The position numbers and the translations under genes are program-made. From an uncultured Candidatus Saccharibacteria bacterium (GTDB taxonomy: Bacteria; Patescibacteriota; Minisyncoccia; Phycocordibacterales; Phycocordibacteraceae): a stretch of 64,000 nt of DNA. Of this stretch, positions 28,429-47,058 are shown one piece after another. Each line of letters begins with the position of its first letter. Position 1 is the first letter of the stretch. The notes beneath the pieces are model-generated. The model did no database searches. It had not been told where the DNA came from and was given only the letters and a program-made list of their open reading frames with translations. The stretch spans positions 9,258 to 73,257 of the forward strand of contig CAYGGK010000002.1 of NCBI GenBank assembly GCA_964349555.1, given 5' to 3'.

Positions 28429-28501
28429 GGGCGACTAGAGAGAATCGAACTCTCGATACCTGCTCCACAAGCAGGAGTTTTACCACTAAACTATAGTCGC
28501 C
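28429..28501 (-). tRNA. tRNA-His (anticodon GTG)
   Basis: Manual fold: acceptor GGCGACT/AGTCGCC, anticodon loop CTTGTGGA, T-loop TTCGATT, discriminator C; no encoded G-1 or CCA. Confidence 0.8.
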
Positions 28502-28569: not shown

Positions 28570-29103
28570 TTAATACCGAGGGGTTTCTTCGGCGACACCA
28601 TTGATGTGGTTGGCGAGGCGCGCGAGCGCGAAGAGGAGCGAGGAGAGGCGATTCATATACGCGACTGTTTCTGCAGATAGGTCGCGCAGACGCGCCTCGC
28701 CAACCGCGGTAAGACGCCGCTCGGCGCGCCGCGCGAGCGTCCGCGCGACGTCGAGGAGCGCGGAGAGCTCCGTCCCGCCAGCGACGGAGAATCCCTTCAA
28801 GGGAGGTATTTCTTTCTCTATCTCATTCACTATTTTTTCAATATGCGGCACAGCGTCCTTCCCTATTCTTTTATCCGCGCCGGCGACCTCCGCCTGGACG
28901 ATGAAAAGTGTCTCTTGTATGTCGCGCAGTGTGCTTGCGATGCGCGGCTCGCCGGCGCATCGCATCTTCACAAACCCAATATAGGAGTTCAGCTCATCGA
29001 GCGCGCCGAGCGCTTCAGGCAACTCTGACGACTTTGATATCCGCTGTTGGTTACAGCCGAATGCGGTCGTCGTCCCCGTGTCCCCCTTGCCGGTATAAAG
29101 CAT
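28570..29103 (-). CDS. PduO-type ATP:cob(I)alamin adenosyltransferase-like protein (MMAB family)
   Basis: MLYTGKGDTGTT N-terminus and overall helical-bundle pattern typical of the PduO/DUF80 family. Confidence 0.65.
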   Translation of the reverse strand: MLYTGKGDTGTTTAFGCNQQRISKSSELPEALGALDELNSYIGFVKMRCAGEPRIASTLRDIQETLFIVQAEVAGADKRIGKDAVPHIEKIVNEIEKEIPPLKGFSVAGGTELSALLDVARTLARRAERRLTAVGEARLRDLSAETVAYMNRLSSLLFALARLANHINGVAEETPRY

Positions 29104-29113
29104 TATGCGGGAA

Positions 29114-29878
29114 TTATACAGGGCTTACGGCGAGTAACGCCATGGTGCCGATACCCGCCAACATCCAGGCCAGTTGTATGCCTGCTCGCCGCGTGTTTGG
29201 TTCTTTGTGTAATTCTGGAATGAGGTCAGACATGGCGATATAAATGAAGCTCGCCGCGCCCAACCCCAACAAGACTACGAGCGCCTCCTCAAGGTCTCTC
29301 GCGAGAGTTAACACGACAACCGCCCCCGCGATAGCGGTGGTGGCGGAAAAGAAATTGTACAACAATGCCTTTTTTCTACTCCATCCTCCATGGATGAGTA
29401 CGGCGAACTGTCCGATTTCTTGAGGAACCTCGTGGAAAATAATCGCGGTGGCTGTCGCTATCCCGACAGGAATACTGACCAAGAAGCTTGTCGCGATAAT
29501 GATGCCGTCGAGGAAGTTGTGCAACACGTCTCCAATAATGGTGAGGTGCACCATAGAGTGCACGCGCTCCTCGTGAGCGGTGTGCGACTGGTGCCACAAC
29601 AACACGCGCTCTAAAACGAAAAAAATCATAATGCCGGCGAGCACGGAGGCGCCGGCGAGCACGGAGGAGTCTCCCTGCATAATTTCTGGAAGGATGTGGA
29701 TGAACACGTCGCCGAGGAGCGCTCCCGCAGAAAAGCTAATGAGATAAAAAAGAATGCGCCGCAATCGTTCTTGTGTAATCCCCAGCGTAAAAACTCCTAC
29801 CAGAGAAATGAGACTGATAAGTATGACGCTCGCGAGCGTGTATATCCAAACTTCAATCATACTGACGTAGTTGAACAA
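29114..29878 (-). CDS. ZIP-family divalent metal transporter (ZupT-like)
   Basis: Multi-TM; HEVPQEIGQFAVL.. and His-rich loop HQSHTAHEERVH. Confidence 0.75.
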   Translation of the reverse strand: MFNYVSMIEVWIYTLASVILISLISLVGVFTLGITQERLRRILFYLISFSAGALLGDVFIHILPEIMQGDSSVLAGASVLAGIMIFFVLERVLLWHQSHTAHEERVHSMVHLTIIGDVLHNFLDGIIIATSFLVSIPVGIATATAIIFHEVPQEIGQFAVLIHGGWSRKKALLYNFFSATTAIAGAVVVLTLARDLEEALVVLLGLGAASFIYIAMSDLIPELHKEPNTRRAGIQLAWMLAGIGTMALLAVSPV

Positions 29879-29928
29879 TACCTAAAAAAATTGACTCGGA
29901 CAAGGGTTCTCGGCTATCGTGAGGGAGT

Positions 29929-30504
29929 ATGAAAAAACAAACCAAGTTAGTAGTGGGTGTTTCGGGAGCAAAAGGCAGCTTTTCTGAAGAAGCCGCCCTT
30001 AACTACGTTGCGAAGTCGCGTATAAAATCCTATTCAATACAGTACCTTGTCTCGGTAGAAAATGTTCTCCAGGCCCTTGAGCGAGGAGAGATAGCCGAGG
30101 GCATCTTCCCTATTGAGAACTCAAACGGCGGTGTCGTTATTGAGACCGTCTACGCCATGGCCAAACACACATTTCATATCAAGAAAATGTTTGAGATAGA
30201 CGTTCATCACAATTTGCTCGTGAAGAGGGGGGTTACGAGAGCCGAGATTAAAAAAATAGTTTCCCACGACCAGGCCCTCAAACAGTGTCGGATGTACCTC
30301 AAACGTGCGTGGCCGAAGGTGAAGGTGGCTGAATACAAAGACACAGCGCTCGCCGCCAAGGACCTTGCCAGCGGGAAACTGCCCGCCTCAACGGCCGTCA
30401 TCGCTTCAGGAGTAGCGGCAGATTTATATAAACTAAAAATTCTTGAGAAATCAATTCAGGATTTAAAGTTCAATTACACTAGTTTTATCGTCGCAAAAAA
30501 ATAA
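29929..30504 (+). CDS. prephenate dehydratase catalytic (PDT) domain protein, no ACT domain
   Basis: KLVVGVSGAKGSFSEEAALNY... PDT-domain N-terminus; about 190 aa. Confidence 0.65.
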   Translation: MKKQTKLVVGVSGAKGSFSEEAALNYVAKSRIKSYSIQYLVSVENVLQALERGEIAEGIFPIENSNGGVVIETVYAMAKHTFHIKKMFEIDVHHNLLVKRGVTRAEIKKIVSHDQALKQCRMYLKRAWPKVKVAEYKDTALAAKDLASGKLPASTAVIASGVAADLYKLKILEKSIQDLKFNYTSFIVAKK

Positions 30505-30506
30505 AA

Positions 30507-30752
30507 TTAGTCGGAGTAAAAATGTTTCCGCAATTCCGACTCTGGGATATACCGCGAGGCTTGCCGATAAAGCGATACGGCCGTGCCTCGGTCGAGTTCC
30601 TTATGGTTAGGCACGGTAAGCGTCTCACGCGTGCCGTCCTCGGCAGTTCGCCGTAGCTTGATATGGCTTCCTCTCTGGTCTGCTATAGAAAATCCGAAAC
30701 TCTCAAAAATATGAACAACATCTTGTCCGTTCAAGACCCGCGGCTTAGACAT
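30507..30752 (-). CDS. hicA: type II toxin HicA (mRNA interferase)
   Basis: MSKPRVLNGQDVVHIFESFGFSIADQRGSHIKLRR.. classic HicA; start at internal Met of ORF 30507..30812. Confidence 0.8.
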   Translation of the reverse strand: MSKPRVLNGQDVVHIFESFGFSIADQRGSHIKLRRTAEDGTRETLTVPNHKELDRGTAVSLYRQASRYIPESELRKHFYSD

Positions 30753-30975
30753 GCGCGAGCGCGCGAGGCAACTCAAAGTTGACGAGCACGGAGGACGAGG
30801 GTGCGAGGCCAAAATCCGCCGGATCCTCTCCGTTAAGGCAGAGTTCCGTGGCTTCCTGGATATTCTTCGCGAGTTCGTCGAGGGTCTTACCCTGGGTTAC
30901 TACCGGCAAATCCAAACCCTCAGCGACGTAGTAAGTGTCACCCTTGAAGATGCGGTATTGGATGATGGTCTTCAT
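30745..30975 (-). CDS. hicB: HicB-family antitoxin (UPF0150 fold)
   Basis: 76 aa; overlaps hicA start by 8 nt; YYVAEGLDLPVVTQGKTLDELAKNIQEA typical of the HicB N-domain. Confidence 0.65.
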   Translation of the reverse strand: MKTIIQYRIFKGDTYYVAEGLDLPVVTQGKTLDELAKNIQEATELCLNGEDPADFGLAPSSSVLVNFELPRALAHV

Positions 30976-31000
30976 ACTCGCTATTATACCATAGACGAAT

Positions 31001-32668
31001 TTAAGTAGGAAACTCTACAATAAAAGTCGAGCCCTTGCCCGCGCCCTCGGATTCGGCGCGGATGGTGCCACCATGCGCCTCCACAATCTGCTTCGCGATG
31101 TAGAGGCCGTAGCCGGTGGAGTGGACGTTCACCTTCTGCGACTCCTTACCGTGACCACCCTCGGTGAAGAGCAGTTTCTTATCTTCATCGGTTATGCCGA
31201 CGCCAGTATCTTTTACTTTGAAAACAAAAACATCCTTGTTGAGCGATTTATCCCGAGTCTTTTCGAGGGAAACCGCTACCGAGCCAGTCGGTGTGTAGTT
31301 AATAGAGTTGTCTATCAGGTTGCGTAGCACGTGGTCGCCGATTTGAGCTCTGTCTCCGGTCATCTCATACGACCCCTCATCGGTGGTAAAGGAGAGATTG
31401 AGCCCTTTCTGCTCGGCAGAGGACTTCGCCTTCTCTACCGCCTCTCCCACAAGAGCCTTGAGATCAAAGGTCGCTTTCGTGTAGGTCACGGTCCCCTTCT
31501 TCAAGTTCGCGGCCTTAAGGATATTCTCCACTGCACCAGCGCTCTGGCGTGACTCGGTGAGCGCATGCTCAACAAACGGCTTGAGCGTGTCGGGCAACAC
31601 TCCAAAGTCGCCCTCAGCGAGCGCGGCGAACGCTCCTGCATCCTTGGTCAACGACCCCTTCACCTCATGCCCGATGAAATGTATAAGCGTCTCCTGTCTC
31701 TCGTTGGTCTTCGCGAGCTCCCCCGCGAGTTCTTCAATATGCTCTCGCTGCTCAATCTCCCGTTTGACGCTTCGGACAAGGAACCAGCCGAAAATTATTG
31801 CAGAAAACAGTGTAATCCCAGTTAACACATAACTGACCGGATTTGTTACGAAGAGGAATTCCGCTGCCACTAGGATGACAAGGGAGACAACAAGTGCCTG
31901 GGTTGCAACGAGCTTTATATTAAACGCATGATATCGAGTCGTCGCATACGCAAGAATCCCAACAAAAATTGTCATGGCTGCCATGCCATATTGTGAAAGT
32001 CCGAAATCTGGTATATATCCCTGGTCAACAAGATAGCTCGCTACGACTCCTGTAACTAGAAAAGAGAAGGTAAAAAGTTCCGCGCCAGCAAAAATAACGA
32101 CTCGTGCAGATCGAATTTGGTAATCAGCGACATTCTTTTTGCGAAGCCCTTGGAACGCAGAAACCGCCATTAAGACCATGGCAAGTATGCCGAGACCGTA
32201 ATAATAGTTGGTAAACCAAGTCCCTTCGATTGCGATACAGTCTCTGATGTTATACCCGATGAGATTCGCAGTGGTAGGGGTGAAGATGAGTATGGGAAGA
32301 AATGCCACAGTCCAAACTGTAGCCATCCAAGCTGGCAATGGACGCTCAGTAATAGATACATGCACGAACCAATTTGTGAAAAAGAAAAGTAGCACCGAGA
32401 GCAGTCCGAGTTCTGCCCATGAAGACATGATGAATGTATTGTCTTCAATATAAATCCATTGCAATAAATCAAGCGTTGAATAGATTGAGAAAATAACAGC
32501 AATAACGGCAAGTAAGACACTTGCAAGATCCCTGCGTTTTAACAATACATAGCCACCGAAAAGAAGGGACGCCACGATTGCTGGTATATGGGTGTAATAG
32601 AGCAATCCTTGAGAATCCAAAAAAAACTGGTAGCAGTATTGAAGATTGTTCAAGAGATTGTATTCCAT
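31001..32668 (-). CDS. sensor histidine kinase with a roughly 7-TM N-terminal sensor domain
   Basis: HisKA H-box IHFIGHEVKGSL, HATPase_c N/G boxes (NLIDNSINYT, DTGVGI, GYGLYIAKQIV); no response regulator seen in window. Confidence 0.8.
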   Translation of the reverse strand: MEYNLLNNLQYCYQFFLDSQGLLYYTHIPAIVASLLFGGYVLLKRRDLASVLLAVIAVIFSIYSTLDLLQWIYIEDNTFIMSSWAELGLLSVLLFFFTNWFVHVSITERPLPAWMATVWTVAFLPILIFTPTTANLIGYNIRDCIAIEGTWFTNYYYGLGILAMVLMAVSAFQGLRKKNVADYQIRSARVVIFAGAELFTFSFLVTGVVASYLVDQGYIPDFGLSQYGMAAMTIFVGILAYATTRYHAFNIKLVATQALVVSLVILVAAEFLFVTNPVSYVLTGITLFSAIIFGWFLVRSVKREIEQREHIEELAGELAKTNERQETLIHFIGHEVKGSLTKDAGAFAALAEGDFGVLPDTLKPFVEHALTESRQSAGAVENILKAANLKKGTVTYTKATFDLKALVGEAVEKAKSSAEQKGLNLSFTTDEGSYEMTGDRAQIGDHVLRNLIDNSINYTPTGSVAVSLEKTRDKSLNKDVFVFKVKDTGVGITDEDKKLLFTEGGHGKESQKVNVHSTGYGLYIAKQIVEAHGGTIRAESEGAGKGSTFIVEFPT

Positions 32669-32674
32669 GTGGCT

Positions 32675-33442
32675 CTAGACGAATTGCCGCACCTTTTCTG
32701 GATAATAACACCCGAGCGGGCCATCATCAGTTTCCATAGGTTCAATGGGGACAATAAGCGGTTGTAAACCAAAAACTTCTTTCAGTTTCCGGAATGCCGG
32801 AAGCACTTTGATATTAGTAAAAAATGATTCTCGTTTTTCTGTTGTAAAATTACCGAACAAAATTGCATCTGATATGAACAACCCCAGGTATCGAAGATAC
32901 GGTAATTCGGGCGCAAAAGAATATCCTTTGCGGAACCAATCAGAGAAGTCGTATATTTCAATATTCACGCCTGGCAAACATTCCGAGAAAAGGCGGTGGT
33001 GGAAATCAATAAAATTTTCACCTTTTATGGTCTTGATTTCATTCATCGGCTTTCCTTGATCTTTTTCAAAATCGATAATACGTATCGACTCAGTAATCTT
33101 CTTGTTCCCTAAGAAGTTCTCTCGAAAGAATGTCAGCTCGCCTAAGCAGTGTTTTACATAATTTAAGTGGACAAACTTATCCTTTCTAAATTCATAGAAA
33201 ATAGGTCTGATTGGTAGATTTTTAGAAACATCCAGAAAATAGTTAAGTTCAAGGTTTGGACTTACAAGCGTAGGGGACATTACCGCTCGTGGCTCTAACA
33301 TTAATTCAGGAGGGCATGGGTGCGAAGAGAAGTAAGCATCCACCCTCTTCCTCAATTCCCTATCACCTCGGCGACGCTTAAGTTCTTCCAGCGCTTTCGT
33401 CAATGGTGTATAAAGTTCTGCGATTTCAGAATAGGAGGACAT
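32675..33442 (-). CDS. hypothetical protein (low-GC island; operonic with kinase)
   Basis: ORF only; 6-nt gaps to neighbours; no family recognised. Confidence 0.3.
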   Translation of the reverse strand: MSSYSEIAELYTPLTKALEELKRRRGDRELRKRVDAYFSSHPCPPELMLEPRAVMSPTLVSPNLELNYFLDVSKNLPIRPIFYEFRKDKFVHLNYVKHCLGELTFFRENFLGNKKITESIRIIDFEKDQGKPMNEIKTIKGENFIDFHHRLFSECLPGVNIEIYDFSDWFRKGYSFAPELPYLRYLGLFISDAILFGNFTTEKRESFFTNIKVLPAFRKLKEVFGLQPLIVPIEPMETDDGPLGCYYPEKVRQFV

Positions 33443-33448
33443 GAGACG

Positions 33449-33787
33449 TTATTGATTTGTGGTTATGGGACCATAGCATGTATTTTCTTCGCCTGATTCA
33501 CAATATTGAACTGTACAGCTTGAATCATCCTCCACACAACTCAACTCCGGACACTGGCCTGCCCACCCGTCACAGATAGGTATTGTGTTAGCTCTCTTTG
33601 TAATCTCTGCGTAATATTGTGGCGCATTTTCTCCGTCTCCAATAAAACAGGAATGCTGGGTTGGATCGCATGATACGTTTGCAAAAACGAGATAATCACG
33701 AACAATATAGAATTTATAAAATGCCGCACTCGCCGACACTAGCGACACCAGGACGATAATCCAGATGAGAATCCGAGTCCCCTTCAT
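33449..33787 (-). CDS. small secreted Cys-rich protein (signal peptide plus about 10 Cys)
   Basis: MKGTRILIWIIVLVSLVSASA signal; C-rich mature region; start at internal Met of ORF 33449..33898. Confidence 0.4.
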   Translation of the reverse strand: MKGTRILIWIIVLVSLVSASAAFYKFYIVRDYLVFANVSCDPTQHSCFIGDGENAPQYYAEITKRANTIPICDGWAGQCPELSCVEDDSSCTVQYCESGEENTCYGPITTNQ

Positions 33788-33848
33788 GGTTATTATTTTA
33801 ACACAAAAAAAGAAAATCGGCGGCATGCGTTGTGCGCATTGCCGCCGA

Positions 33849-34382
33849 TCAAGTGAGACCGAACCAGTTGAAGATGAAGCGGAGGCCCTCGACGGCAAGG
33901 GTTACAACACCTGTCCACCAGAGGTTGGCCACCAGAACACTGCCCCAGAAGATTCTCCAGTCCCGAGACGAGAGGCCGTTGTACGCTTCCGCGCCATGCC
34001 GCATGTACACGGTCGTCACGAACGGATCCGTGAAGCAGGACAAGGCGAGGAATGCGAGCCAGTCACCCTTGCGGGTGGCCCATTGGATAAGGCGCGCCAC
34101 GCGCCCTTGCTTCTCTTCCCCATCTCGCACTCCCTTGAGGAGTTCGAGACCGAGCCAGTCTTGCTTAGACCAGTCGTAGAAGAGGAGGTAGAGCCAGCAG
34201 ATGAGAGCTGAGAATACGGTCATGACGAGACCGCCGGAAATTGCCCCCAACCACGCTATGACCGCAGGGTAGAAGGTGTAGTCAAACACAAACTCCTCCG
34301 CCTGCTTGAAGCCATGGCCGACAGCCATGATACCGATTCGCTCTTTCCAGCGAATCGGTTGATTCGCTGATTTGAGCGCCAT
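33849..34382 (-). CDS. polytopic membrane protein (about 4 TM), function unknown
   Basis: ORF with hydrophobic segments; first gene of the putative four-gene minus-strand operon. Confidence 0.35.
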   Translation of the reverse strand: MALKSANQPIRWKERIGIMAVGHGFKQAEEFVFDYTFYPAVIAWLGAISGGLVMTVFSALICWLYLLFYDWSKQDWLGLELLKGVRDGEEKQGRVARLIQWATRKGDWLAFLALSCFTDPFVTTVYMRHGAEAYNGLSSRDWRIFWGSVLVANLWWTGVVTLAVEGLRFIFNWFGLT

Positions 34383-34600
34383 TTGGCATCTCCCTTGTTT
34401 GTTACGTTAATGTTCAGGCATTCGACTCCCGACGCACTGTCGTGCTGTCGAGTACAAATACCGCTACTTATATTAAAGCACGACTATCTAAAATGTACAA
34501 GTGTTTGACAATTTATAGATTTAGTAATACGATTTACTCGTGAGTCGTAATTGTGCTACTCGCCTTGGCCTACGCGCCATGAATGTAGAAAGAGAAAACA

Positions 34601-34987
34601 ATGCTTGCTCAAGTTCTTATAAACGAAGACGGGATAAACGCTCGCGCGATCTCCCAGCAGGTTTCTCTCCCTGAGTTCGACACCCACGTTCTTAAGCGGG
34701 TGTTAAGGGAAGAATCAAACTTGCATGACCCTCGCCCCCTAACCGACGCACAGATCGACGCCGACGTTGATGCCTACCTGGAATTCCTTCGCGAACGAAA
34801 GCTGAACCACGGTGTCAACATCGTGCCCGTGGTCCAGGTCGATCGGGTCTGGCACATTCACATCATTCAGACCGAGCAGTACGCCCAGGTCTGCAACGAC
34901 TACTTCGGCTACTTCCTTCATCATGCATCTTTCATCTGCGGCATGGGCGACGGTAAGAAGATGGTCCCCTGGCATACTCGTCAGTAG
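34601..34987 (+). CDS. hypothetical protein (possible DUF1399/GRDP-like WHxH motif)
   Basis: VDRVWHIHIIQTEQYAQVCNDYFG resembles the conserved core of DUF1399; weak. Confidence 0.3.
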   Translation: MLAQVLINEDGINARAISQQVSLPEFDTHVLKRVLREESNLHDPRPLTDAQIDADVDAYLEFLRERKLNHGVNIVPVVQVDRVWHIHIIQTEQYAQVCNDYFGYFLHHASFICGMGDGKKMVPWHTRQ

Positions 34988-35118
34988 TACCACCATTTGA
35001 GCCGAACCCAGTCCTCAAGCCTGCTTTCCTCTATCTCTAAGGGAAAGCAGGCTTTTGAATTGTCGTGCGAGACAAGGCTGAGTTGCGGAACAGGCAAGAT
35101 GCTCGTACAATTTTCTCA

Positions 35119-36762
35119 ATGGAAAAAATGCCTTCTAAGGAGAACGGCGGAAAAGAATTGCTACTGCCAGTTAATAGTCACACAGAGCTTTTCAGGGAAT
35201 TTCCCCCAGTGCCACAAAACCTTACTACTCTAGACACTCCTTTTTTGAGTCCTTACAAAAGTGCAAAAGAAAAGTTGGATTACGAGCGCCGTTTGCCCAT
35301 AGAAATCTTGCCATTTGTGCGCACTTATTTTGCGCAGCATAAGGATGAGATGTTGAAATTGTGTGAGAACGAACCTATTTCAGAGTATCTTTCGCATATC
35401 AAGGAAGCATGGCAAAAACACATAGGGGCTAACGAGGCGATTGACTGTTTTTTGAACTACGAGACTAAGAATGTTTTTGGAGACTGGTCTCAGAAGGAAT
35501 GGGGAATGGCAAAGAGGCTTATAGTTGCGGCTTTCGAGACTGATCATCAGAAAACAATGTATTCGGGGGGAATTAAACATAAATTAGAGATAGAACGCAT
35601 AAGGCTTGGAGAAAAATACCGGACCAGCGGAATTCAGGATTTTGACACACTACTTATTTCACCCGCTGGCCTCACCTTTTACGAAGGCCGTGAACACAAT
35701 AATAAGAAGTTACATCTATCCATACTCAAGGGAGAACCTGATTTTGAATTGAAGAACGAAATAGTAAATCGCTATAATGGGGGTGACCAAAAATTGTTCG
35801 AGGAACGATTCAAGACTTTCAAGTTCTCATCGGATATTGAGAAGTTGGAGTCAGAGATACAGGTAATTGAAGAAAGGGTTCGTTCTCGGTCAGTGAAGAA
35901 GAATTATGCGTTAGTGGAGAGGCAGGAGCTAAAAGATTTTGATTCTCTGCTTTTCTTCGACAACACAACGGAGTACGAATATACATACTCACTTAAAGGA
36001 CTGCAAGATTTGTTTCTTCGCGAAGAACTTCTCAAGCGATTAAAGAGTTTTGGGCAGTTCCCTGCAGATACGTCGGTATATTCCTTATCAAAAGAAGATT
36101 TTGTATCAGCCATAGACGATAGATTATCTAGCATAGCTAGACACTCTTCGATTCGTCTGCGTCCATACCTTCAAACAATGGATACGTGCGGAACAGCGTG
36201 TATTATGTCCATCCTTAATCGAAAAGGCATACCGCTTACCAGAGATGAGGAAATGGCAATTTGGGAACGCGTAGGAAAGCCTTATAATTTTCCTGGTGGA
36301 CTTGCGACCGTTCTCCTCGAGCATGGTTTCCATGTTAAATACATCCAAAATCACCTGACACTTCTTCAAGCTGACAGCCTGGAATTTGAGTCAAAAGATC
36401 CAAACCTCTTAAGGGCCGCTCGGGAATATGTGGTTCTTCATGAAAAGGCAATCAAAAAGGGTTTGAATTATTCTATAGAAAGTTGGGACTTTGAAAAAGT
36501 GAAGGTCGAGATAAGTAGGGGCAACCCCTGCATTCTGTATATATATGTTTCTGAGACATATACCCATTGTGTCATTGCTCGAGGTATCAAGAACAACAGG
36601 CTAGAGATAATCGACCCTCTTGGAAATATTAAGTATATGAATGAGGAGCAATTGAACAAAAGAATCGATACCCCGATGGGACGAAGAATGTTAGTTGTCG
36701 AGAAACTACCAGATGACTTTTTTGAGAAATTGGATAAAGACCTTCAGGTTATTGGTTATTAA
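35119..36762 (+). CDS. large hypothetical protein with C-terminal papain-like C39_2-type cysteine peptidase domain
   Basis: DTCGTACIMSILNRKGIP (catalytic Cys) ... YTHCVIARG (His) in the C-terminal 180 aa; N-terminal about 370 aa unknown; low GC. Confidence 0.45.
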   Translation: MEKMPSKENGGKELLLPVNSHTELFREFPPVPQNLTTLDTPFLSPYKSAKEKLDYERRLPIEILPFVRTYFAQHKDEMLKLCENEPISEYLSHIKEAWQKHIGANEAIDCFLNYETKNVFGDWSQKEWGMAKRLIVAAFETDHQKTMYSGGIKHKLEIERIRLGEKYRTSGIQDFDTLLISPAGLTFYEGREHNNKKLHLSILKGEPDFELKNEIVNRYNGGDQKLFEERFKTFKFSSDIEKLESEIQVIEERVRSRSVKKNYALVERQELKDFDSLLFFDNTTEYEYTYSLKGLQDLFLREELLKRLKSFGQFPADTSVYSLSKEDFVSAIDDRLSSIARHSSIRLRPYLQTMDTCGTACIMSILNRKGIPLTRDEEMAIWERVGKPYNFPGGLATVLLEHGFHVKYIQNHLTLLQADSLEFESKDPNLLRAAREYVVLHEKAIKKGLNYSIESWDFEKVKVEISRGNPCILYIYVSETYTHCVIARGIKNNRLEIIDPLGNIKYMNEEQLNKRIDTPMGRRMLVVEKLPDDFFEKLDKDLQVIGY

Positions 36763-36775
36763 ATAATCGTACACA

Positions 36776-37462
36776 TCATTCAATCTCCTTGAGCGCTTCC
36801 ATTGTTACGTGGACTAACTCGATCACCTCCTCATCCTTTTTCGGAGAATGCCCCATCCCTTCTATTAAATGAAGCTTAGAATTCGAAAGCATGGTGTTGA
36901 GCGTTTCTGAATTTTCAATTGATACAGCATCATCACTCGTCCCATGCACTATATGAACGGGAATATCGATTTCTCGCAAGAAATTCTTTCCAAGGGTAAT
37001 TGATAGAAGTGGGTCAATATCAGAAAATGGCTTGGACTTCATCTCATTAAAGTTTCCTTCATCAGTTTCCGAAAATCCAATCGCAGGAGCCCACAATATC
37101 AATATATTAATACGTTTATCGTTTGCGGCAAGTAGCATCCCGCCGCCAAAACTTTTACCAATGCCGTATATGTCAGTATACCCCATCTCCAAAAGGGAGG
37201 ACACTGATTCATGTATTCTTTCAACTATTTTAGCGATACACATTTCTCCTAGATCAGTACTAGCGTTCCACACCTTAAGGCACTCAGAGTGAATACCTCC
37301 TTTATTTAACTGATCTTTTAGCATTTCATAGAGTGGTAACTGCTTTTCTGCATTTATGCCTGGAACGAAAAGAACTGCGCGGGTTTTTTTCTGCTTTGGT
37401 TTGGAGCTGGAAATAAATTTTGTATCTTCTAGTTTCATATTTCTAATTTTATCACTTTTCAA
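36776..37462 (-). CDS. alpha/beta hydrolase (dienelactone hydrolase-like)
   Basis: GxSxG nucleophile elbow GIGKSFGG, C-terminal His GMGHSP. Confidence 0.6.
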   Translation of the reverse strand: MKSDKIRNMKLEDTKFISSSKPKQKKTRAVLFVPGINAEKQLPLYEMLKDQLNKGGIHSECLKVWNASTDLGEMCIAKIVERIHESVSSLLEMGYTDIYGIGKSFGGGMLLAANDKRINILILWAPAIGFSETDEGNFNEMKSKPFSDIDPLLSITLGKNFLREIDIPVHIVHGTSDDAVSIENSETLNTMLSNSKLHLIEGMGHSPKKDEEVIELVHVTMEALKEIE

Positions 37463-37500
37463 CGAGCTATCGAGACGCTGTGTTTTCTTTGTTCGGGATG

Positions 37501-38218
37501 AATGGGGTCAGCCACCATTCTTTGGTCTACCAACTCTCCGTAGAGTTTGTTCCAACCCATGCTTCTTCACGATAGCATCCTGCCAGCGATCGGAACCGAA
37601 CGGGATACTCTTCGCTATCGAACGTTCGAGAGCCTTTTCTTCTGTTTGTACCTGCGGCTGATTCAGCCATGAGATGTAGTCATGTGGTACTGGAACTGGC
37701 CAAGAAGTGAGGAGTTTCTTTTGCTGTGGTGTTCCATGTTCCCGGCGCCACACACTCGACCAGCGCCATTGCTCTGCCTTTTTAACTAGGTTCGCTTTCT
37801 TCGCGTTTCGCTCGACATAGCGGACAAGGGTAAGGAAGTGTTTGTCTGTCTGACAGAGAAAGGATTTGTATCTGCCTTGGTAGAGGTGGCCCTGGCCAAC
37901 AGTATCTTTTGCAACGTGCCAACGTCTCGTATGTGTATTGGTGATCCAACCCATGAATAGGGAGAGGTCACCATCATTCCTGGGATAGAGGACTAGATGC
38001 CAGTGATTAGGCATGAGGCAGTACGCAAGGATGCGCATAGCAAATTTCTTTTCCGCTTCTTCAAGAATTTGCTCGAAGAGCGGGTAGTCTTTATCGGTAT
38101 CAAATATTTGGACGCGGGCATTTGCGCGGTTCAGGACGTGGTATACATGATCACCAACATCAGTGCGCTCAATGCGGGGCATGCATACAGAATATCATAA
38201 ATGGTGGCTGACCCCATT
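37501..38218. mobile_element. 718-bp IS200-like/REP-associated tyrosine transposase (RAYT) unit bounded by perfect 19-bp inverted REP-like repeats AATGGGGTCAGCCACCATT
   Basis: Left IR 37501..37519, right IR 38200..38218 (exact reverse complement); each IR is itself hairpin-forming (AATGG..CCATT). Confidence 0.75.
37508..38182 (-). CDS. REP-associated tyrosine transposase (Y1 transposase, PF01797-like)
   Basis: YHVLNRANARVQIF.., HxH motif CLMPNHWHLVL, catalytic-Tyr region LYQGRYKSF / YVERNAKKANLV...WRWSS. Confidence 0.75.
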   Translation of the reverse strand: MPRIERTDVGDHVYHVLNRANARVQIFDTDKDYPLFEQILEEAEKKFAMRILAYCLMPNHWHLVLYPRNDGDLSLFMGWITNTHTRRWHVAKDTVGQGHLYQGRYKSFLCQTDKHFLTLVRYVERNAKKANLVKKAEQWRWSSVWRREHGTPQQKKLLTSWPVPVPHDYISWLNQPQVQTEEKALERSIAKSIPFGSDRWQDAIVKKHGLEQTLRRVGRPKNGG

Positions 38219-38302
38219 ACATAATTACATTCATCTTGTGGAGATTTTGCTTCATGTATTCGCAAAATCCCTCACAAGGTCTTCGAGTCCTCTTCTGGCC
38301 AT

Positions 38303-38328
38303 TTAAAAACCGGCCTAAGCCGGTTTTC
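38303..38328 (-). terminator. hairpin terminator downstream of tRNA-Leu (AAAACCGGC-TTAG-GCCGGTTTT + T-run)
   Basis: Perfect 9-bp stem flanked by A/T runs. Confidence 0.6.
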
Positions 38329-38333
38329 TCATG

Positions 38334-38417
38334 TGCCCAGGAGAGGACTCGAACCTCCAAGCCCTTGCGGGCGCTACCACCTCAAGGTAGTACGTCTACC
38401 AATTTCGCCACCTGGGC
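38334..38417 (-). tRNA. tRNA-Leu (anticodon GAG), type II with long variable arm
   Basis: Manual fold: acceptor GCCCAGG/CCTGGGC, D-loop GAAATTGGTAGAC, anticodon loop TTGAGGT, T-loop TTCGAGT. Confidence 0.8.
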
Positions 38418-38426: not shown

Positions 38427-38948
38427 CTATACTACAACTTCTTCTTTTTTCTCTTCTGCCGTTTCTTCTTCTACAATCGGCTCTGTTTCTCCTACCTCGG
38501 CCTCTGGAATTATTTCCGCCTCCCCCGCAGGAGCGACTTCCTCGTCACTTTTCACATTCATCATACGCGCGTTACGCAACTGGCGGCGGACAGCCTTAGC
38601 CGCCTTCTCGCGGATGAAGTAGAGCTTCGCCCTGCGCACCGCAGAGCGCTTCACGATCTCAATAGAGTCGATGACCGGGGAGTAGAGCGGAAAGGTCTTC
38701 TCGACACCGACGCCGGAGAGCGTCGCACGCACGGTGAAGGTCCCTCCAGCCTCCCTCCCATGCTTAACCGCTAGGACTAATCCCTCGAAGGTCTGCTTTC
38801 GCGTGTTCTTAATTGTCTTCTCCTTCTTGTCGGTACCGCGACCTTTTTTAAGCTCAACGATGTTCTGTACGACGCGCACCGTGTCTCCCGGGCGTATCCC
38901 AAGCTTCGCGCGTCCTTCTATATTGACCGGAGTAATGACTCTCTGCAT
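38427..38948 (-). CDS. rplS: 50S ribosomal protein L19 with acidic C-terminal extension
   Basis: MQRVITPVNIEGRAKLGIRPGDTVRV... canonical L19 core; about 55-aa E-rich tail. Confidence 0.9.
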   Translation of the reverse strand: MQRVITPVNIEGRAKLGIRPGDTVRVVQNIVELKKGRGTDKKEKTIKNTRKQTFEGLVLAVKHGREAGGTFTVRATLSGVGVEKTFPLYSPVIDSIEIVKRSAVRRAKLYFIREKAAKAVRRQLRNARMMNVKSDEEVAPAGEAEIIPEAEVGETEPIVEEETAEEKKEEVVV

Positions 38949-39761: not shown

Positions 39762-40817
39762 TTACCGCGATGCGGCGACCATGTCCGGAACGAGAGATGT
39801 TGTAACTTGTTCCAACACTTTTTTAGTCGCCGGTGCCAGTTCAGTGTGCGAGAGCGCTTCGACTGCCTCCCTTTTGTAACGTGCGGCATAATCCGCAAGT
39901 ATTTTCTGTGCATCTGTTTTTGAAAAAAAGTCGAGAACTTCTGCGACCATTGCTTCGTCTAGATTATCGTTGTCATACAACTCCTCAAGGCGCTTTTTAT
40001 CTGACGAATTGAGATGCATATATGCATGTATGACGGGAAGTGTCTTCTTGCGTTCATAAATATCCCCCGCGCGCCTCTTGCCTGTTTTCTCTGGTACACC
40101 CCAAATCCCTTGCCAGTCATCGTAGAGTTGGTACGCCATCCCGAGCTTCCCGCCAAAGTCACCAAGTGCCGTGACCTTTTCTTCGGCTAACCCCGCAAGA
40201 ATGGCGGTCGTTTCAGTTGCCGCACGGATGAGTTTCGACGTCTTCTTTTCAGTCATCAAGAGATACGCCTCTTCCGTTACTGACGGGGCATTAAGTTTCG
40301 CGGCCGTAAGGGTAAAATCGAGATACTGCCCTTCAATGACCTCAAGATATCTGTCGAGAAGACGTGTGCGCAGTGCGGTGGTACGACTATGCGGTATACG
40401 CATCAACTCCGACTTCTCAAGCGCGCGAAGCGCAAGTATAAGTTGCGCATCTCCCGTGTTAATCGCGTGGTCAACTCCCCAGAGCTTCCATACTGTCGGA
40501 CGGCCGCGGCGCAGTTCATCATGATCGACAATATCATCGTGAATGAGCGTGAAGTTATGGAAAAGTTCGATCGAGAGAGCGGCTGGGATCGCTTCTTCGA
40601 GAAGACCATAGCTGTCGGCGATAAGGAGCATAAGGCCGGGTCGCATACGCTTACCGGCCGCGCGAGAACTTACGTTTAAGTGTTCGTCAGTGTACCCCAT
40701 GAAGTAACGCATCATGCCGTAGAGTGCGTAGTCATTTCGCGTGAGAAACTCCACCGCAGACGCATCAATACGAGAGCCGTAGGTACCGACCACTTCGAGT
40801 GGGTCAATCTTTTTCAT
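39762..40817 (-). CDS. trans-polyprenyl diphosphate synthase (IspA/GGPPS family)
   Basis: FARM LIHDDIVDHDELRRGRPT and SARM YQLYDDWQGIWG. Confidence 0.85.
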   Translation of the reverse strand: MKKIDPLEVVGTYGSRIDASAVEFLTRNDYALYGMMRYFMGYTDEHLNVSSRAAGKRMRPGLMLLIADSYGLLEEAIPAALSIELFHNFTLIHDDIVDHDELRRGRPTVWKLWGVDHAINTGDAQLILALRALEKSELMRIPHSRTTALRTRLLDRYLEVIEGQYLDFTLTAAKLNAPSVTEEAYLLMTEKKTSKLIRAATETTAILAGLAEEKVTALGDFGGKLGMAYQLYDDWQGIWGVPEKTGKRRAGDIYERKKTLPVIHAYMHLNSSDKKRLEELYDNDNLDEAMVAEVLDFFSKTDAQKILADYAARYKREAVEALSHTELAPATKKVLEQVTTSLVPDMVAASR

Positions 40818-41518
40818 ACGCCAAAGTTCCTTTTGCGAGCACGGTATTCGTCCAGAATCAGATTAAACTCTTCTTTTGTAAAAGCTGGCCAGAAAGGGTC
40901 CGTAAAGAACAATTCGCTATAAATCGACTGCCATGGGAGAAATCCTGAGAGACGCTTCTCGCCGCCGGTACGAATGATGATGTCGGGGTCTGGCATAGGA
41001 TGTGACCAGAGTTTCTGCGCAAAGGTATCCTCGGTAATAGTGGGCGTCCCCTCCGCTAACAATGTATTCACCGTCGTAACAATCTCTGCGCGACCGCCAT
41101 ACGACATCAGGAGATGAAGCGTGATGTTGTACGAAACTGCCGTTGCTCTCTCTGCTTTCGCCATCATCTTTTGTATATCTTCGCTGAAGCGTAACCTGTC
41201 GCCAACAAATCGCACACGGACACGTTCGTCGACCATCTTTTCTGTTTCGTTCTCGAGGACAGAATGGAGTAGTTTCATCAAGTATCCAACCTCCTCTTCG
41301 GAGCGCTTCCAATTTTCTGTAGAAAATGCATACGCAACTACGTGTGTAATGCCAGCTTCGCGCGACCAACGTATGAATTCTTGGAGTTTCTTATATCCTT
41401 CACGGTGCCCTTCAAACTTAGGCACCCCGTGCTCTTTCGCCCAGCGACGGTTGCCGTCCATAATAATGCCGACGCAGGTAACACCAGGTGCGTCGTTTGT
41501 CCCTCTATGTTCGTTCAT
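40814..41518 (-). CDS. uppS: undecaprenyl diphosphate synthase (cis-prenyltransferase)
   Basis: IIMDGNRRWAKEHG, ..AYAFSTENWKRS..; overlaps upstream gene stop. Confidence 0.9.
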   Translation of the reverse strand: MNEHRGTNDAPGVTCVGIIMDGNRRWAKEHGVPKFEGHREGYKKLQEFIRWSREAGITHVVAYAFSTENWKRSEEEVGYLMKLLHSVLENETEKMVDERVRVRFVGDRLRFSEDIQKMMAKAERATAVSYNITLHLLMSYGGRAEIVTTVNTLLAEGTPTITEDTFAQKLWSHPMPDPDIIIRTGGEKRLSGFLPWQSIYSELFFTDPFWPAFTKEEFNLILDEYRARKRNFGV

Positions 41519-41656
41519 AGTCGTACCAACCTTTATATCACGATAGGTGGTTTCAAGTATTTCTAAGGAAGGAAAATTATTTGTTTGACTTTAAACACTG
41601 GCTCGAATACTGTACCTGAGGAAGTTGTCAATCATTACGCGCCATTAGGGGGTGAT

Positions 41657-42214
41657 ATGAAAAAAATAGAGAAAGTCGTAGTTGTGACCAAAAGTCCCAA
41701 CGAGGTTCGCGCCGTTGAGAAGGCGCTCCAGAAGCTCTGCGTTGATGAGGTGATGGTGGTTGGATGCGAGACCGAATCAGAGTCAGGCGTTCCTGTACAA
41801 CTACAGGACGGGCTGATGATGATCCAAAGTGCAGCTAGTCGCGCCAAACATGCGCGCCAACTTCACCCTGGTGCCGACATATACGTCGGTATCGAAAAAA
41901 GATTGGAGAAAGTAGTCGATTGTCAGTACGACTTCATATGTGTCGTCGCTCTCGACGGCGATGGCGACACACGACACGAGTCACTCGGCACGTACCTTTA
42001 TATCCCTAATTTTTCTATCCCTTGGCGGGTAGTGAAAAGAATTATGGCTCAAAGTAACGTTCTTGGTAAAATCATCCAGGAACTCGCCGATGACGAAAGA
42101 AATCCAATAAAACGACTCTCGGAAGAAGCCGCCTCTCGTTTAGAGAGTCTTGTGCTAATTGTCGAGCGTGCCCTCGAGCCAATTGTTTTCCCCGAGCGCT
42201 ACGCGGAACAGTAA
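41657..42214 (+). CDS. YjjX/DUF84-like non-canonical purine NTP phosphatase (ITPase/XTPase)
   Basis: VVVVTKSPNEVRAVEKAL.., ESGVPVQ, ADIYVGIE resemble the E. coli YjjX blocks; start at internal Met of ORF 41585..42214. Confidence 0.45.
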   Translation: MKKIEKVVVVTKSPNEVRAVEKALQKLCVDEVMVVGCETESESGVPVQLQDGLMMIQSAASRAKHARQLHPGADIYVGIEKRLEKVVDCQYDFICVVALDGDGDTRHESLGTYLYIPNFSIPWRVVKRIMAQSNVLGKIIQELADDERNPIKRLSEEAASRLESLVLIVERALEPIVFPERYAEQ

Positions 42215-42257
42215 AACATCAGCCCACTGGAGCGGAAAATCTGCTTCGGTGGGTTTT

Positions 42258-42295
42258 CTGTTAACTTTTGGTGCGCGGTGAGGGACTTGAACCCC
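42258..42295 (-). other. tRNA 3' fragment (T-arm + acceptor 3' strand + CCA: GGGGGTTCAAGTCCCTCACCGCGCACCA); no matching 5' half
   Basis: Revcomp reads as a canonical T-loop/acceptor/CCA, but no D-arm or anticodon arm can be folded upstream; overlaps the 3' end of ORF 42261..42950. Confidence 0.45.
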
Positions 42296-42950
42296 CGAGT
42301 TCAGCTAATTTTTCAATCCACCCTTTTATAGTGAGAAAGATGATGGTGTCACACACGTATATTTGAAACGTACCGTACGGCAACGAATCTTTTTTTCCTT
42401 TACTCGCAGTGCTTGGCTTCGAATAGGTCTTATAAAACTGCCGGCGAGGTATCCCTGAAATTTGAGACCAATACTGTTCTGCTTTTTCTGCGTTCAAATG
42501 CGAAAAAGTATGCACATGTCCGCGGAATTTATTCGACGGGACATTAAACACTTCACGAAAGAACAACATCATGAATCGGATGACTTTGGGATCACTGTTT
42601 GAAATTCTAGCCATTCCGGTTTTTGTTTTTCCTCCCTCGCCCCAATACAAAGCAGATCCTACTAGGAGCAAATCCTGTTTAGATAGTGTCGGGATTTTTT
42701 CTTTTGCTGCGTCGATTACTATCCGATGCCGCTGAAGCGTTCCTTTTATCCTGCTTTTTCTCCTTCTCTCTATAGACTCAACACTGCGACCGTGTGTGCT
42801 TAGTTTTTTCCTCTGCTGTTCCGATAACTCTATATCACGAACCCATAAACTAACACTTGCTTTAGAAACACCTAACTCACGTACTATCTCATTGAGCGAC
42901 ATACCTTTCCCCCGAAGGAGCCTGGCTCGTTCTTGTTCTTCTTTTTTCAT
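42261..42950 (-). CDS. HTH-domain protein of unknown function (low GC; weak LAGLIDADG-like motif)
   Basis: N-terminal HTH GMSLNEIVRELGVSKASVSLWVRD; LLLVGSALYWGEGGK faintly resembles a LAGLIDADG block; sits between a tRNA 3' fragment and a tRNA cluster. Confidence 0.35.
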   Translation of the reverse strand: MKKEEQERARLLRGKGMSLNEIVRELGVSKASVSLWVRDIELSEQQRKKLSTHGRSVESIERRRKSRIKGTLQRHRIVIDAAKEKIPTLSKQDLLLVGSALYWGEGGKTKTGMARISNSDPKVIRFMMLFFREVFNVPSNKFRGHVHTFSHLNAEKAEQYWSQISGIPRRQFYKTYSKPSTASKGKKDSLPYGTFQIYVCDTIIFLTIKGWIEKLAELGGSSPSPRTKS

Positions 42951-43045
42951 ATCTAGTATATCATAGGTATACTCTGTATATGTATATTATATCAGTTCGC
43001 TTATTTAGCAATCCTCGATATTGGTGGTATTGTGGAAAAGTTCTT

Positions 43046-43118
43046 GGGCGATTAGCTCAGTTGGTAGAGCAATGTCCTTACACGACAAAGGTCGCAGGTT
43101 CGAGCCCTGCATCGCCCA
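43046..43118 (+). tRNA. tRNA-Val (anticodon TAC)
   Basis: Manual fold: GGGCGAT acceptor, D-loop AGTTGGTA, anticodon loop CTTACAC, T-loop TTCGAGC. Confidence 0.8.
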
Positions 43119-43181
43119 CACAAGTAGCAGAACGGCTCATATACGCCGTATATGAGCCGTTCTGCTGATATAATTCCCGAG

Positions 43182-43265
43182 TGCCGCGGGGGAGACTCGA
43201 ACTCCCAATCCCTTGCGGGAACTAGCTCCTGAAGCTAGCGTGTCTACCAATTTCACCACCACGGC
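43182..43265 (-). tRNA. tRNA-Leu (anticodon CAG), type II
   Basis: Manual fold: acceptor GCCGTGG/CCGCGGC, anticodon loop TTCAGGA, long variable arm, T-loop TTCGAGT. Confidence 0.75.
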
Positions 43266-43300
43266 AATCTTACACGTAAACTCATCCTAACAGAAACTTG

Positions 43301-43395
43301 TGCCCTCGGACGGAATCGAACCTAGCACGGTGAGACCCCACAAGGGTTCCTTGGCGACTTTCAATACATCAGACTAAGGCCTCTCGGTCCGGGCT
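43301..43395 (-). other. tRNA-like sequence (GGTTCGATTCC T-loop motif) that does not fold into a canonical cloverleaf; possible degenerate tRNA/att remnant
   Basis: Revcomp ends ..GCTAGGTTCGATTCCGTCCGAGGGCA, but acceptor/T-stem pairing fails on inspection. Confidence 0.25.
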
Positions 43396-43473
43396 CAACT
43401 CTCAAAGTGGAACAAATTTGACCTTCTTAATAGCCACTATACCGAGCGGCCATTTTAGGGCACACTGTAAGAA

Positions 43474-46101: not shown

Positions 46102-46401
46102 TTTGGTGCTATAATTTTTGAAGACTTACTAACAAATCTTAATTATCTTAATTACTAAACCATGAGAAAAATATTCCTCTTCAGTATGTTACTAATCTCC
46201 GCATACTTACCACTCACTGCCAAAGCAGCATTTAGTGTCCCCCAAGGTTGAACCGGGCTATCGACGATACCAACCGGGTCTCTTCTCATAGGGAATGGAA
46301 CAAACCCGCTCCAAACTACATATGCCCCGAGTTTTGAGTTTCTCAACTCCACAAGTACCATAGCGACGTCTACCTTCAGTGGGAACCTTTCGATTGGAGG
46401 A

Positions 46402-46983
46402 TTGTTTAATTTCGCTTCGGGTTGGATAAACAATCTCTCATTCGGTATTTCTAACTCAGAAAACATAATCTCAACAAGAGATAGTACAGATGTACCAGAC
46501 GCACTCACCATAAAGACTGGAGATGCTACAGGACAGGCTGGATCGGTTCCAGACTTGCTTATACGAGGAGGGGATCTTCTTAATGGAGACGGAGAAGGCG
46601 GGGGAGGCCAAGTGGGCCTTATGGGAGGGAGCTCATTAGGAAATGGGAGAGGAGGTGATGTTGGACTAGAAGCAGGTAGCGGAGGTTCGTCGGGCGGCAA
46701 CGGTGGGGATGTAAACCTGCTTTCGGGATATGCTAATGGTGGTGATTTTAGAGGTGGTGACGTTAATCTTCAGGTAGGTCCGGGCAGTGGAGCAGGGAGG
46801 AACGGGATCATCAGACTAACGTCAGTGGTGGTTATGGGCACAACAACGATAGAGTTTGGCCTAGTAGACGCAGGGGCCACAGGTCACCATGTATGCTACA
46901 ACACCAAAAATACGGCAGGAGAGGCTATCTCCTTCTATTTTGTCGGAACGACGATGGTTGTAGAAAGTAATTTGTGTAAATAA
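46402..46983 (+). CDS. Gly-rich repeat protein (GGDV/GGN repeats); in frame with an upstream signal peptide (46162..46248) but separated by TGA
   Basis: ORF track (alternative TTG start); repeats GGDVGLEAG / GGNGGDVNLLSG / GGDFRGGDVNLQVG; see finding. Confidence 0.4.
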   Translation: MFNFASGWINNLSFGISNSENIISTRDSTDVPDALTIKTGDATGQAGSVPDLLIRGGDLLNGDGEGGGGQVGLMGGSSLGNGRGGDVGLEAGSGGSSGGNGGDVNLLSGYANGGDFRGGDVNLQVGPGSGAGRNGIIRLTSVVVMGTTTIEFGLVDAGATGHHVCYNTKNTAGEAISFYFVGTTMVVESNLCK

Positions 46984-47058
46984 AATTCCACAATCTTAGC
47001 GTCGGTCCCATTGCTCGGTCACTTGAATTAGCACTGGCTGGTGCCCCCAGCTGGAATC

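Follow-up and report, generated by a model that had tools for sequence, protein, structure and literature searches.

Gene content and limits of the variable segment

The DNA analysed here is a 64-kb window of contig CAYGGK010000002.1, from an uncultured bacterium of the Candidate Phyla Radiation (CPR; Patescibacteria), and this report concerns the genes that lie between a conserved adenosyltransferase gene, CobAT, and tRNA-Leu(GAG). From left to right they encode a ZIP-family metal transporter (Zip), a prephenate dehydratase domain protein (PDT), a HicA-like toxin preceded by a small open reading frame (ORF), a histidine kinase (HK) operon, a cassette comprising a UCP032817-like protein (UCP128), a C39-fold protein and an alpha/beta-hydrolase (ABH), and a RAYT-like Y1 transposase unit (Table 1). 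An earlier note, made from sequence alone, had described part of this DNA, 32675-37462, as a horizontally acquired low-GC islet next to a tRNA gene. Its inventory of u255, a Cys-rich secreted protein, a membrane protein (TM177) and the HK was essentially right, the C-terminal C39-like peptidase domain (in a protein of 547 residues) and the hydrolase are present, and the islet does adjoin a tRNA gene, tRNA-Leu(GAG).

Eighty related loci were fetched around the ribosomal protein L19 gene (L19 identity 73-93%) and analysed with tblastn (threshold 1e-5) and ARAGORN; statistics for the gap between tRNA-Leu and CobAT refer to the 53 related species, each represented by a metagenome-assembled genome (MAG), in which all anchors lie on one contig. 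The backbone conserved in these relatives, which belong to Candidatus Kaiserbacteria (Paceibacterota) and place the window in that clade too, is UPPS-RluD-L19-tRNA-Leu(GAG)-CobAT-tRNA-His. tRNA-Leu(GAG) comes after L19 in essentially all of them, and the next conserved gene downstream is CobAT rather than the HK gene, whose adjacency to the tRNA the note had proposed to check. In none of the relatives (0/53, tblastn 1e-5) does any gene of the window's segment lie between tRNA-Leu and CobAT, so the locus does not have the same content throughout the clade. Zip is absent from the related L19 loci, as is PDT (all 80), and no DNA homology was found in the related loci inside 29150-38231. Because the genes of the CobAT-tRNA gap are all absent from the relatives' locus, the variable segment runs from 29104 to 38218 (9.1 kb), and the limits 32675-37462 were too narrow. 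The HK gene is thus part of the variable segment and not of its native flank, and the hicA pair, PDT, Zip and the RAYT unit lie within it as well. On the 3' side of tRNA-Leu(GAG) a conserved trailer comes first, and variable DNA starts 114 bp past the tRNA 3' end; alignment of the trailer with that of the nearest relative (L052) places the right breakpoint at the outer end of the right inverted repeat of the RAYT unit, 38218.

The interval itself is highly variable. The distance from tRNA-Leu to CobAT ranges from 6 to 7026 bp in the 53 species (median 846), being below 150 bp in ten of them (6-11 bp in the tightest) and above 1 kb in 26; the 9229 bp of the window is the largest seen. Two-thirds of the gap ORFs of the relatives (66/98) are singletons. 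The cargo includes three rve genes (DDE integrase-type transposases), two IstB genes, an IS1595 transposase, a group II intron reverse transcriptase and a serine recombinase, together with nine LAGLIDADG-like ORFs and nine fatty-acid desaturases. In two relatives the gap holds dnaA (L039, 7454-8824; L058, 4065-5456), and the hotspot may lie near the replication origin in some lineages.

The flanks also vary. In L006-L085, RluD falls into two groups by its identity to the window (39-47% versus 71-87%), irrespective of L19 identity, which may reflect allelic replacement or recombination in this flanking core gene. UPPS and RluD, adjacent in most relatives, are separated by an IspB-like polyprenyl synthase (39762-40817) only in the window and L044. 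Thirteen species (L011, L019, L020, L028, L032, L042, L043, L054, L062, L065, L067, L072 and L073) carry a member of a family of ~170-250-aa ORFs, usually of GC 0.40-0.47, between L19 and tRNA-Leu; the family is absent from the window, and its members are probably the LAGLIDADG-like ORFs scored among the cargo.

Table 1. Genes, RNA features and composition blocks in and around the variable segment (window coordinates)
Feature	Position	Strand	Remarks
tRNA-His(GTG)	28429..28500	-	ARAGORN; downstream of CobAT in many relatives
CobAT, PduO-type cob(I)yrinic acid a,c-diamide adenosyltransferase	28570..29103	-	TIGR00636 143 bits, above cutoff; left core flank
Left part of variable segment	29104-31799		51.2% GC
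ZIP-family metal transporter (Zip)	29114..29878	-	PF02535, ZupT-like match; leftmost segment gene, 10 bp upstream of CobAT
Prephenate dehydratase domain protein (PDT)	29929..30504	+	PF00800 2.6e-47
HicA-like toxin	30507-30731	-	PF07927 9e-15
76-aa ORF	30745-30975	-	no family match
Sensor HK	31001..32668	-	HATPase_c 1.7e-22; predicted multi-transmembrane N-half, DHp/HATPase C-half
Left trough	31800-33750		42.0% GC; HK N-half, u255, Cys-rich gene
u255	32675..33442	-	predicted cytoplasmic HUP/Rossmann-like protein with invariant FHHR motif
Cys-rich protein, 112 aa	33449..33787	-	N-terminal signal/anchor segment, 8 Cys
Middle block	33751-35100		52.4% GC, 1.35 kb; TM177 and UCP128
TM177 membrane protein	33849..34382	-	hydrophobic segment; first gene of HK operon; GC3 0.73
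UCP128, UCP032817-like, 128 aa	34601..34987	+	precomputed Pfam match (PF27765); first cassette gene; GC3 0.68
Right trough	35101-37500		40.4% GC; C39 gene, ABH
C39-fold protein, 547 aa	35119..36762	+	novel all-helical N-terminal domain (~20-340), C-terminal C39-fold cysteine peptidase domain
ABH alpha/beta-hydrolase, 220 aa	36776..37438	-	weak Hydrolase_4 and Abhydrolase_1 matches; GC 0.39, codon z -5.3
RAYT-like unit	37501..38218	-	718 bp, 49.3% GC; Y1 (HUH) transposase CDS 37508-38182
tRNA trailer	38232..38331	-	read from sequence; terminator-like hairpin, inverted tRNA-end copy, second hairpin
tRNA-Leu(GAG)	38333..38417	-	ARAGORN; 3' end faces variable segment
rplS (ribosomal protein L19)	38427..38948	-	PF01245 1.7e-26; right core flank; anchor for the 80 loci

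Integration hallmarks and the RAYT-like unit

The claim that the islet bears the classic hallmarks of horizontal acquisition is borne out in its lineage-specific content, the atypical codon usage of several genes and its place on the 3' side of a tRNA, but not in the presence of an attachment (att) repeat or an integrase. The direct repeat of the tRNA-Leu 3' end anticipated at the left boundary is missing: none was found in the window, whether searched for exact 11-16-mers, for the 25-nt tail allowing 5 mismatches or for a 14-mer allowing 2. The only tRNA-derived repeat in the window is a 20-nt stretch of the trailer, 38282-38301, that matches the tRNA 3' end in inverted orientation at 18/20 positions; on one side of it is a terminator-like hairpin (CCGGC-TTAG-GCCGG, then a T run, about 38305-38323) and on the other a second hairpin (about 38237-38280). 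This inverted copy and its trailer are conserved in L052, L012 and L074, and are therefore ancestral rather than a genome-specific att scar. Equivalent trailer features, a terminator with an inverted tRNA-end copy, are seen in L012, L017, L024, L054, L052, L008 and L074, as in many Kaiserbacteria. Pfam and NCBIfam scans revealed no tyrosine or serine recombinase among the main segment ORFs, the only mobility gene being the Y1 transposase.

Four relatives (L012, L017, L024 and L054) have the tRNA 3' end repeated in direct orientation over 14-15 nt (CCTCTCCTGGGCAC), ~170-200 bp downstream. These copies have the appearance of att scars or of a small repeat element derived from the tRNA end, which suggests that tRNA-Leu(GAG) has been an integration target elsewhere in the clade. 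The L012 trailer (9984-10196) holds a third copy of the tRNA 3' end.

The transposase scores 63.5 bits against PF01797 (cutoff 23) and 66.6 bits against NCBIfam NF047646, REP_Tyr_transpos (cutoff 80); a search of PDB returned no sequence match. A perfect 19-bp inverted repeat (AATGGGGTCAGCCACCATT) flanks it on either side, at 37501-37519 and 38200-38218, giving two copies where 0.01 would be expected, and no further copy of the 19-mer occurs in the 64-kb window at up to 3 mismatches. RAYT ORFs are reported to be always flanked by two inverted copies of a short, partly palindromic sequence (PMC2817692). The unit resembles the RAYT/REP system (Nunvar et al. 2010) in consisting of a single Y1/IS200-like transposase gene between two inverted copies of a short sequence. 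It departs from that system in falling below the NCBIfam cutoff and in that its 19-mer is confined, within the 64 kb, to the two flanking copies, with no dispersed REP population seen. Unlike proteobacterial RAYTs, it is found in a CPR host and its protein has a C-terminal extension of ~80 aa. The note had counted the RAYT gene within the island; it does belong to the variable segment, but the 718-bp unit lies beyond the end given, 37462, and before the tRNA.

Base composition and codon usage

The compositional dip is real, but less pronounced than the drop from 55-58% to roughly 40% GC that had been described. The interval 32675-37462 has 43.9% GC, compared with 52.0% outside 29104-38332 and 51.2% for the whole window; both sides of the contrast had been overstated. 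The lowest-GC 1-kb windows of the entire 64 kb sit in this dip (mean of those outside the segment 0.520, sd 0.037). Computed quantitatively, GC is not uniform, but the dip consists of two troughs instead of a single block. Considered as a whole the element is a mosaic, with 42.0, 52.4, 40.4 and 49.3% GC in successive blocks and codon z from +2.1 to -9.4. The edge of the left trough lies inside the HK gene and not at the HK/u255 boundary: GC at third codon positions (GC3) of the HK gene is 0.38-0.46 in codons 1 to ~280 and 0.58-0.72 thereafter, the switch falling at about codon 280-290.

Codon usage, expressed as a log-likelihood z per gene against the rest of the window, follows a similar mosaic. 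It is strongly atypical in u255 (z -6.0), the C39 gene (-9.4) and ABH (-5.3), with the Cys-rich gene at -2.9, but typical in TM177 (+2.1), UCP128 (-1.1) and RAYT (-1.8), as well as in Zip and the HK gene as a whole. A codon-usage plot, as the note had suggested, thus sets apart only some of the islet genes. TM177 and UCP128 are among the most GC3-rich genes in the window.

The same contrasts recur in orthologues. GC3 of TM177 exceeds that of u255 in 30/32 orthologous loci (mean difference +0.13), and GC3 of the HK C-half exceeds that of the N-half in 26/28 (mean +0.155), in both cases independently of host GC. Since this pattern recurs in genomes of 27-60% GC, the mosaic in the window is largely a property of the gene families. 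TM177 reaches GC3 0.71 in a locus of 35% GC (GC-rich copies: L093, 6010-6543; L095; L118). The u255 gene of the window has a GC3 of 0.40, which is 1.2 sd less than the family regression gives for a host of 52% GC (z=-1.2), and is not an outlier; a single low-GC donor for the HK operon was rejected on this basis. In the cassette, the UCP gene is always much richer in GC than its C39 partner at orthologous loci. UCP032817-like genes have GC3 0.72 in a 44% GC locus (L088, 4353-4733) and 0.83 in a 53% GC locus (L086, 8755-9147). Per-gene GC of the UCP, C39 and ABH genes is 0.60/0.41/0.39 in L175 versus 0.54/0.41/0.39 in the window. The C39 orthologue in the 53% GC host (L086) has GC3 0.56, compared with 0.42 in the window.

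The low GC of u255, the HK N-half, C39 and ABH is therefore partly a conserved family property, and only part of it would reflect incomplete amelioration. Low GC as a sign of foreign origin, on which the note had leaned, is thus a weak argument at this locus, where orthologues show the same GC3 mosaic. The ATP synthase subunit a gene, atpB (57138-57920), has GC3 0.42 and codon z -2.8, and low GC3 therefore occurs in an undoubtedly essential gene of the same genome.

The histidine kinase operon

The four genes TM177, Cys-rich, u255 and HK recur together outside this genome. Searches with u255 identified 35 word-indexed homologues and 131 metagenome homologues, of which 80 metagenome loci were kept for operon counts. 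HK is found next to u255 in 40 of these 80 loci, TM177 near it in 36 (mostly just upstream) and the Cys-rich gene in 26. The order TM177-Cys-u255-(SET)-HK is seen in L089-L094 and recurs in loci of 27-60% GC, and the operon is widespread in Paceibacterota. The HK resembles orphan multi-transmembrane HKs of the HisKA_7TM type, with a multi-transmembrane N-terminal sensor followed by DHp/HATPase and no adjacent response regulator. Unlike those, it is set in a conserved CPR operon with membrane, secreted Cys-rich, HUP-fold and often SET-domain proteins. An internal Met start for the Cys-rich gene is supported by the length of its homologues (115-122 aa). The description of the islet as holding only unknown or accessory genes does not do justice to its content, as both this operon and the UCP-C39-ABH cassette are conserved assemblies and not a random set. 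u255 and the C39-fold protein each have a defined gene neighbourhood and a confident structure model.

In the MAG CAZXAN, whose L19 is 85% identical to that of the window, the operon lies beside ddl/uvrABC on contig 1, and the L19-CobAT locus is on contig 6. Neighbouring genes also differ in their nearest relatives. u255 is closest (68-70%) to copies in contigs of 37-44% GC, where the HK is only 41% identical (L089, with u255 at 68%), while the best whole-HK matches (50-57%; L097, L100 and L101) accompany u255 copies of 42-51% identity. Within the HK itself, the best match is L097 for the N-half (59%) but L091 for the C-half (63%).

Several apparent relationships were discarded. The 255-aa ORF at 61921-62688 is unrelated to u255, being a member of the EEP family; a 260-aa protein of L087 is not a u255 homologue (hhalign probability 0.1%); and a 182-aa protein of L086 was rejected as a homologue both of TM177 and of the 182-aa protein of L093. 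In L091 the operon is followed by a GT2 glycosyltransferase 35-38% identical to an 875-aa glycosyltransferase of the window. Directly downstream of the window's HK lie the HicA-like toxin and its preceding small ORF (30507-30975), and in L093 a 96-aa ORF and HicA (2841-3365) lie a few kb from the operon.

The UCP-C39-hydrolase cassette

Among 5.8 billion clusters, only 13 make up the family of the 547-aa protein. Its C-terminal domain adopts a papain-like fold with a Cys/His/Asp(Asn) triad, and neither transmembrane segments nor ABC domains were found in the protein, the N-terminal part being a helical domain. It therefore differs from the C39 peptidases of PCAT/AMS ABC transporters (6mpz, 5xe8 ComA, PCAT1), as it is soluble, lacks an ABC or transmembrane domain, is fused to a novel ~320-aa helical domain and is always paired with a UCP032817-like gene. 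In the four further loci that include upstream sequence (L086, L087, L088 and L175) the latter immediately precedes the C39 gene (56-72% identity). ABH, convergent with the C39 gene, is the third gene of the cassette. Only five ABH homologues were found, on short contigs; L175, which carries the closest C39 homologue (62%), also has a convergent ABH, 31% identical. From these neighbourhoods, UCP-C39-ABH is a rare conserved cassette.

The label 'DUF1399-like' given earlier to UCP128 was not reproduced. No Pfam family in the local library matched even at E<=10, only the precomputed assignment to PF27765 stands, and a literature search for UCP032817 returned nothing. The minus-strand gene at 57977-58492, described earlier as a C39 paralogue, does encode a C39 protein (PF13529, 1.6e-16), but a BLASTP comparison with the 547-aa protein gave E=2.8 and hhalign E=0.16 at a probability of 0.4%. 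The two proteins share only their fold class, and the claim of paralogy is not supported.

Three loci offer enough context to judge (the window, L086 and L087), and at each of them a multi-transmembrane HK occurs within three genes of the cassette; the two closest copies of the cassette have the convergent hydrolase. One reading of this proximity is that the segment genes form one CPR-specific system in which envelope signalling (the HK operon) is coupled to peptide processing (the cassette), the GC3 signature then marking an unrecognised selective constraint; the GC3 richness of TM177 and UCP would, as part of the same reading, point to codon bias linked to expression, or to an RNA or antisense element embedded there. 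We regard such a linked system as doubtful.

Origin of the segment

The small genomes of the CPR are commonly regarded as streamlined and static. The tRNA-Leu/CobAT interval is a hotspot whose content in the window is absent from relatives, is modular and lacks both att repeats and an integrase. The explanation that we favour, and consider probable, is that the segment is a composite, integrase-free fill of a tRNA-Leu/CobAT hotspot that is variable across Candidatus Kaiserbacteria. The 9.1-kb fill was probably built in several steps from modules that are, from left to right, the Zip/PDT/hicA-type pair of near-native composition, the HK operon, the UCP-C39-ABH cassette and the RAYT-like unit. 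The DNA would have entered by recombination or transposition and not through a site-specific integrase, from other Paceibacterota that were in part of lower GC. There is some evidence for such foreign or mosaic ancestry in the incongruent nearest relatives of adjacent genes, the codon z-scores, the GC3 of the C39 gene and the likeness in GC to L175.

Many hotspots of horizontal gene transfer lack integrases or mobile elements, with turnover through recombination at flanking core genes (PMC5635113). Like the integrase-free hotspots described by Oliveira, Touchon and Rocha (2017), the interval is narrow, core-flanked and adjacent to a tRNA, with strain-specific genes and rapid turnover; the fill in the window has neither an integrase nor a self-mobile element, and insertion sequence and recombinase genes occupy the same spot in other species. 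It differs from those within-species pangenomes in that the hotspot is shown in a CPR clade from MAG species representatives, and the only hint of flank recombination is the bimodality of RluD identities. The locus is thus best described as one more integrase-free hotspot islet, its by-products being a conserved CPR kinase operon, a rare C39 cassette and a conserved intra-operon GC3 signature.

Several points weigh against this explanation. The genes of the HK operon are 52-64% identical to the CAZXAN copy, which is within the range of flanking housekeeping genes (RluD 45%, UPPS 53%, CobAT 71%), so the operon may be old and vertically inherited, having simply changed place. No donor was found among the homologues examined, and no closely related strain without the segment among the relatives, which are species representatives with an L19 identity of 73-93%. 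The manner of entry is one that we infer. Finally, composition is an ambiguous clock, given the conserved GC3 differences (30/32 and 26/28 loci) and the modest deviation of u255 (1.2 sd below the regression).

These observations lend some weight to the opposite view, that the segment is old resident DNA whose low GC is intrinsic to its gene families, the relatives differing through rearrangement and differential loss at a fragile locus. It is consistent with the GC3 mosaic conserved in orthologous operons of 27-60% GC hosts and in the UCP/C39 pair, the small u255 residual (z=-1.2), the phylum-wide occurrence of the HK operon at housekeeping-like identities to CAZXAN, and the native-like codon usage of RAYT, Zip, TM177 and UCP. 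We nevertheless consider it unlikely. With a gap below 150 bp in ten relatives and different cargo in nearly every species, repeated gain and turnover fit better than loss from a 9-kb ancestor. Moreover, the HK operon lies elsewhere in CAZXAN, the nearest relatives of adjacent genes are incongruent in rank order, and the GC3 of C39 and ABH is much lower than that of the orthologue in L086, whose host has the same GC.

Integration of one element by a site-specific recombinase at the 3' end of tRNA-Leu(GAG), occupying ~32.7-37.5 kb, would make the islet a classic tRNA island. The segment resembles such islands in lying on the 3' side of the tRNA, in having several genes with low GC and atypical codon usage and in its sporadic distribution, being absent from relatives; the att-scar-like direct copies in L012, L017, L024 and L054 would also fit. 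It differs in having neither a direct repeat of the tRNA 3' end nor a tyrosine or serine recombinase, in being a compositional and phylogenetic mosaic, in real limits (29104-38218) that take in genes of near-native GC, and in holding a chromosomal operon widespread in the phylum. Integration of this kind is highly improbable here.

The least credible alternative is a metagenome-assembly chimera in which low-GC contigs of another organism were joined at conserved tRNA genes: although the ends of three Logan contigs fall within tRNA-Leu, one covers exactly the stretch from tRNA-Leu to tRNA-His, and two assemblies end ~61 bp past the RAYT stop, near-identical contigs occur in several independent metagenome assemblies, L003 spans the L19-tRNA-Leu-RAYT junction, L005, L177 and L178 (independent runs and assemblers) span RAYT-ABH-C39-UCP, L001/L004 (46-kb contig) independently span CobAT to L19, there is also an NCBI contig of 142.8 kb, and the low-GC boundary lies inside an intact HK ORF. 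Assembly breaks at ~37447, ~38361 (inside tRNA-Leu) and ~28472 (inside tRNA-His) mark the ends of L003, L179, L177 and L178. Those inside tRNAs are probably inter-genome repeats, and the break at 37447 could be strain polymorphism at the RAYT/ABH junction.

A phage origin found no support, relatives of C39, u255 and RAYT being absent from IMG/VR, nor did membership of a defence system, for which PADLOC gave only a marginal match to the HK ATPase. A literature search on Kaiserbacteria islands yielded nothing relevant.

Implications

The locus reveals a clade-wide tRNA-adjacent hotspot in the CPR, with fast turnover and with cargo that comes in as reusable modules, probably without an integrase. 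It also flags two uncharacterised families, u255, a HUP-fold protein tied to a multi-transmembrane HK, and the 13-member C39-fold family tied to a UCP032817-like gene. For island callers the locus counsels caution. Neighbouring genes, or halves of a gene, in one conserved operon differ in GC3 by 0.13-0.16 across hosts of 27-60% GC, and a low-GC patch in such an operon does not on its own point to foreign origin. With GC as the only guide, the boundaries were misplaced on both sides (32675-37462 versus 29104-38218).

Other low-GC regions of the window

A second low-GC block, no less atypical than the islet, lies at 41500-47113 (44.3% GC; codon z -6.2, -7.4 and -6.5). It contains an HTH protein (42261-42950), tRNA-Val, tRNA-Leu(CAG), the 875-aa GT2+TPR glycosyltransferase (43474-46101), a 193-aa ORF of unknown function and tRNA-Arg. 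The EEP (endonuclease/exonuclease/phosphatase)-family gene at 61921-62688, with 43% GC and codon z -4.9, adjoins tRNA-Lys (61697-61770), and 61697-62688 could be another tRNA-adjacent islet.

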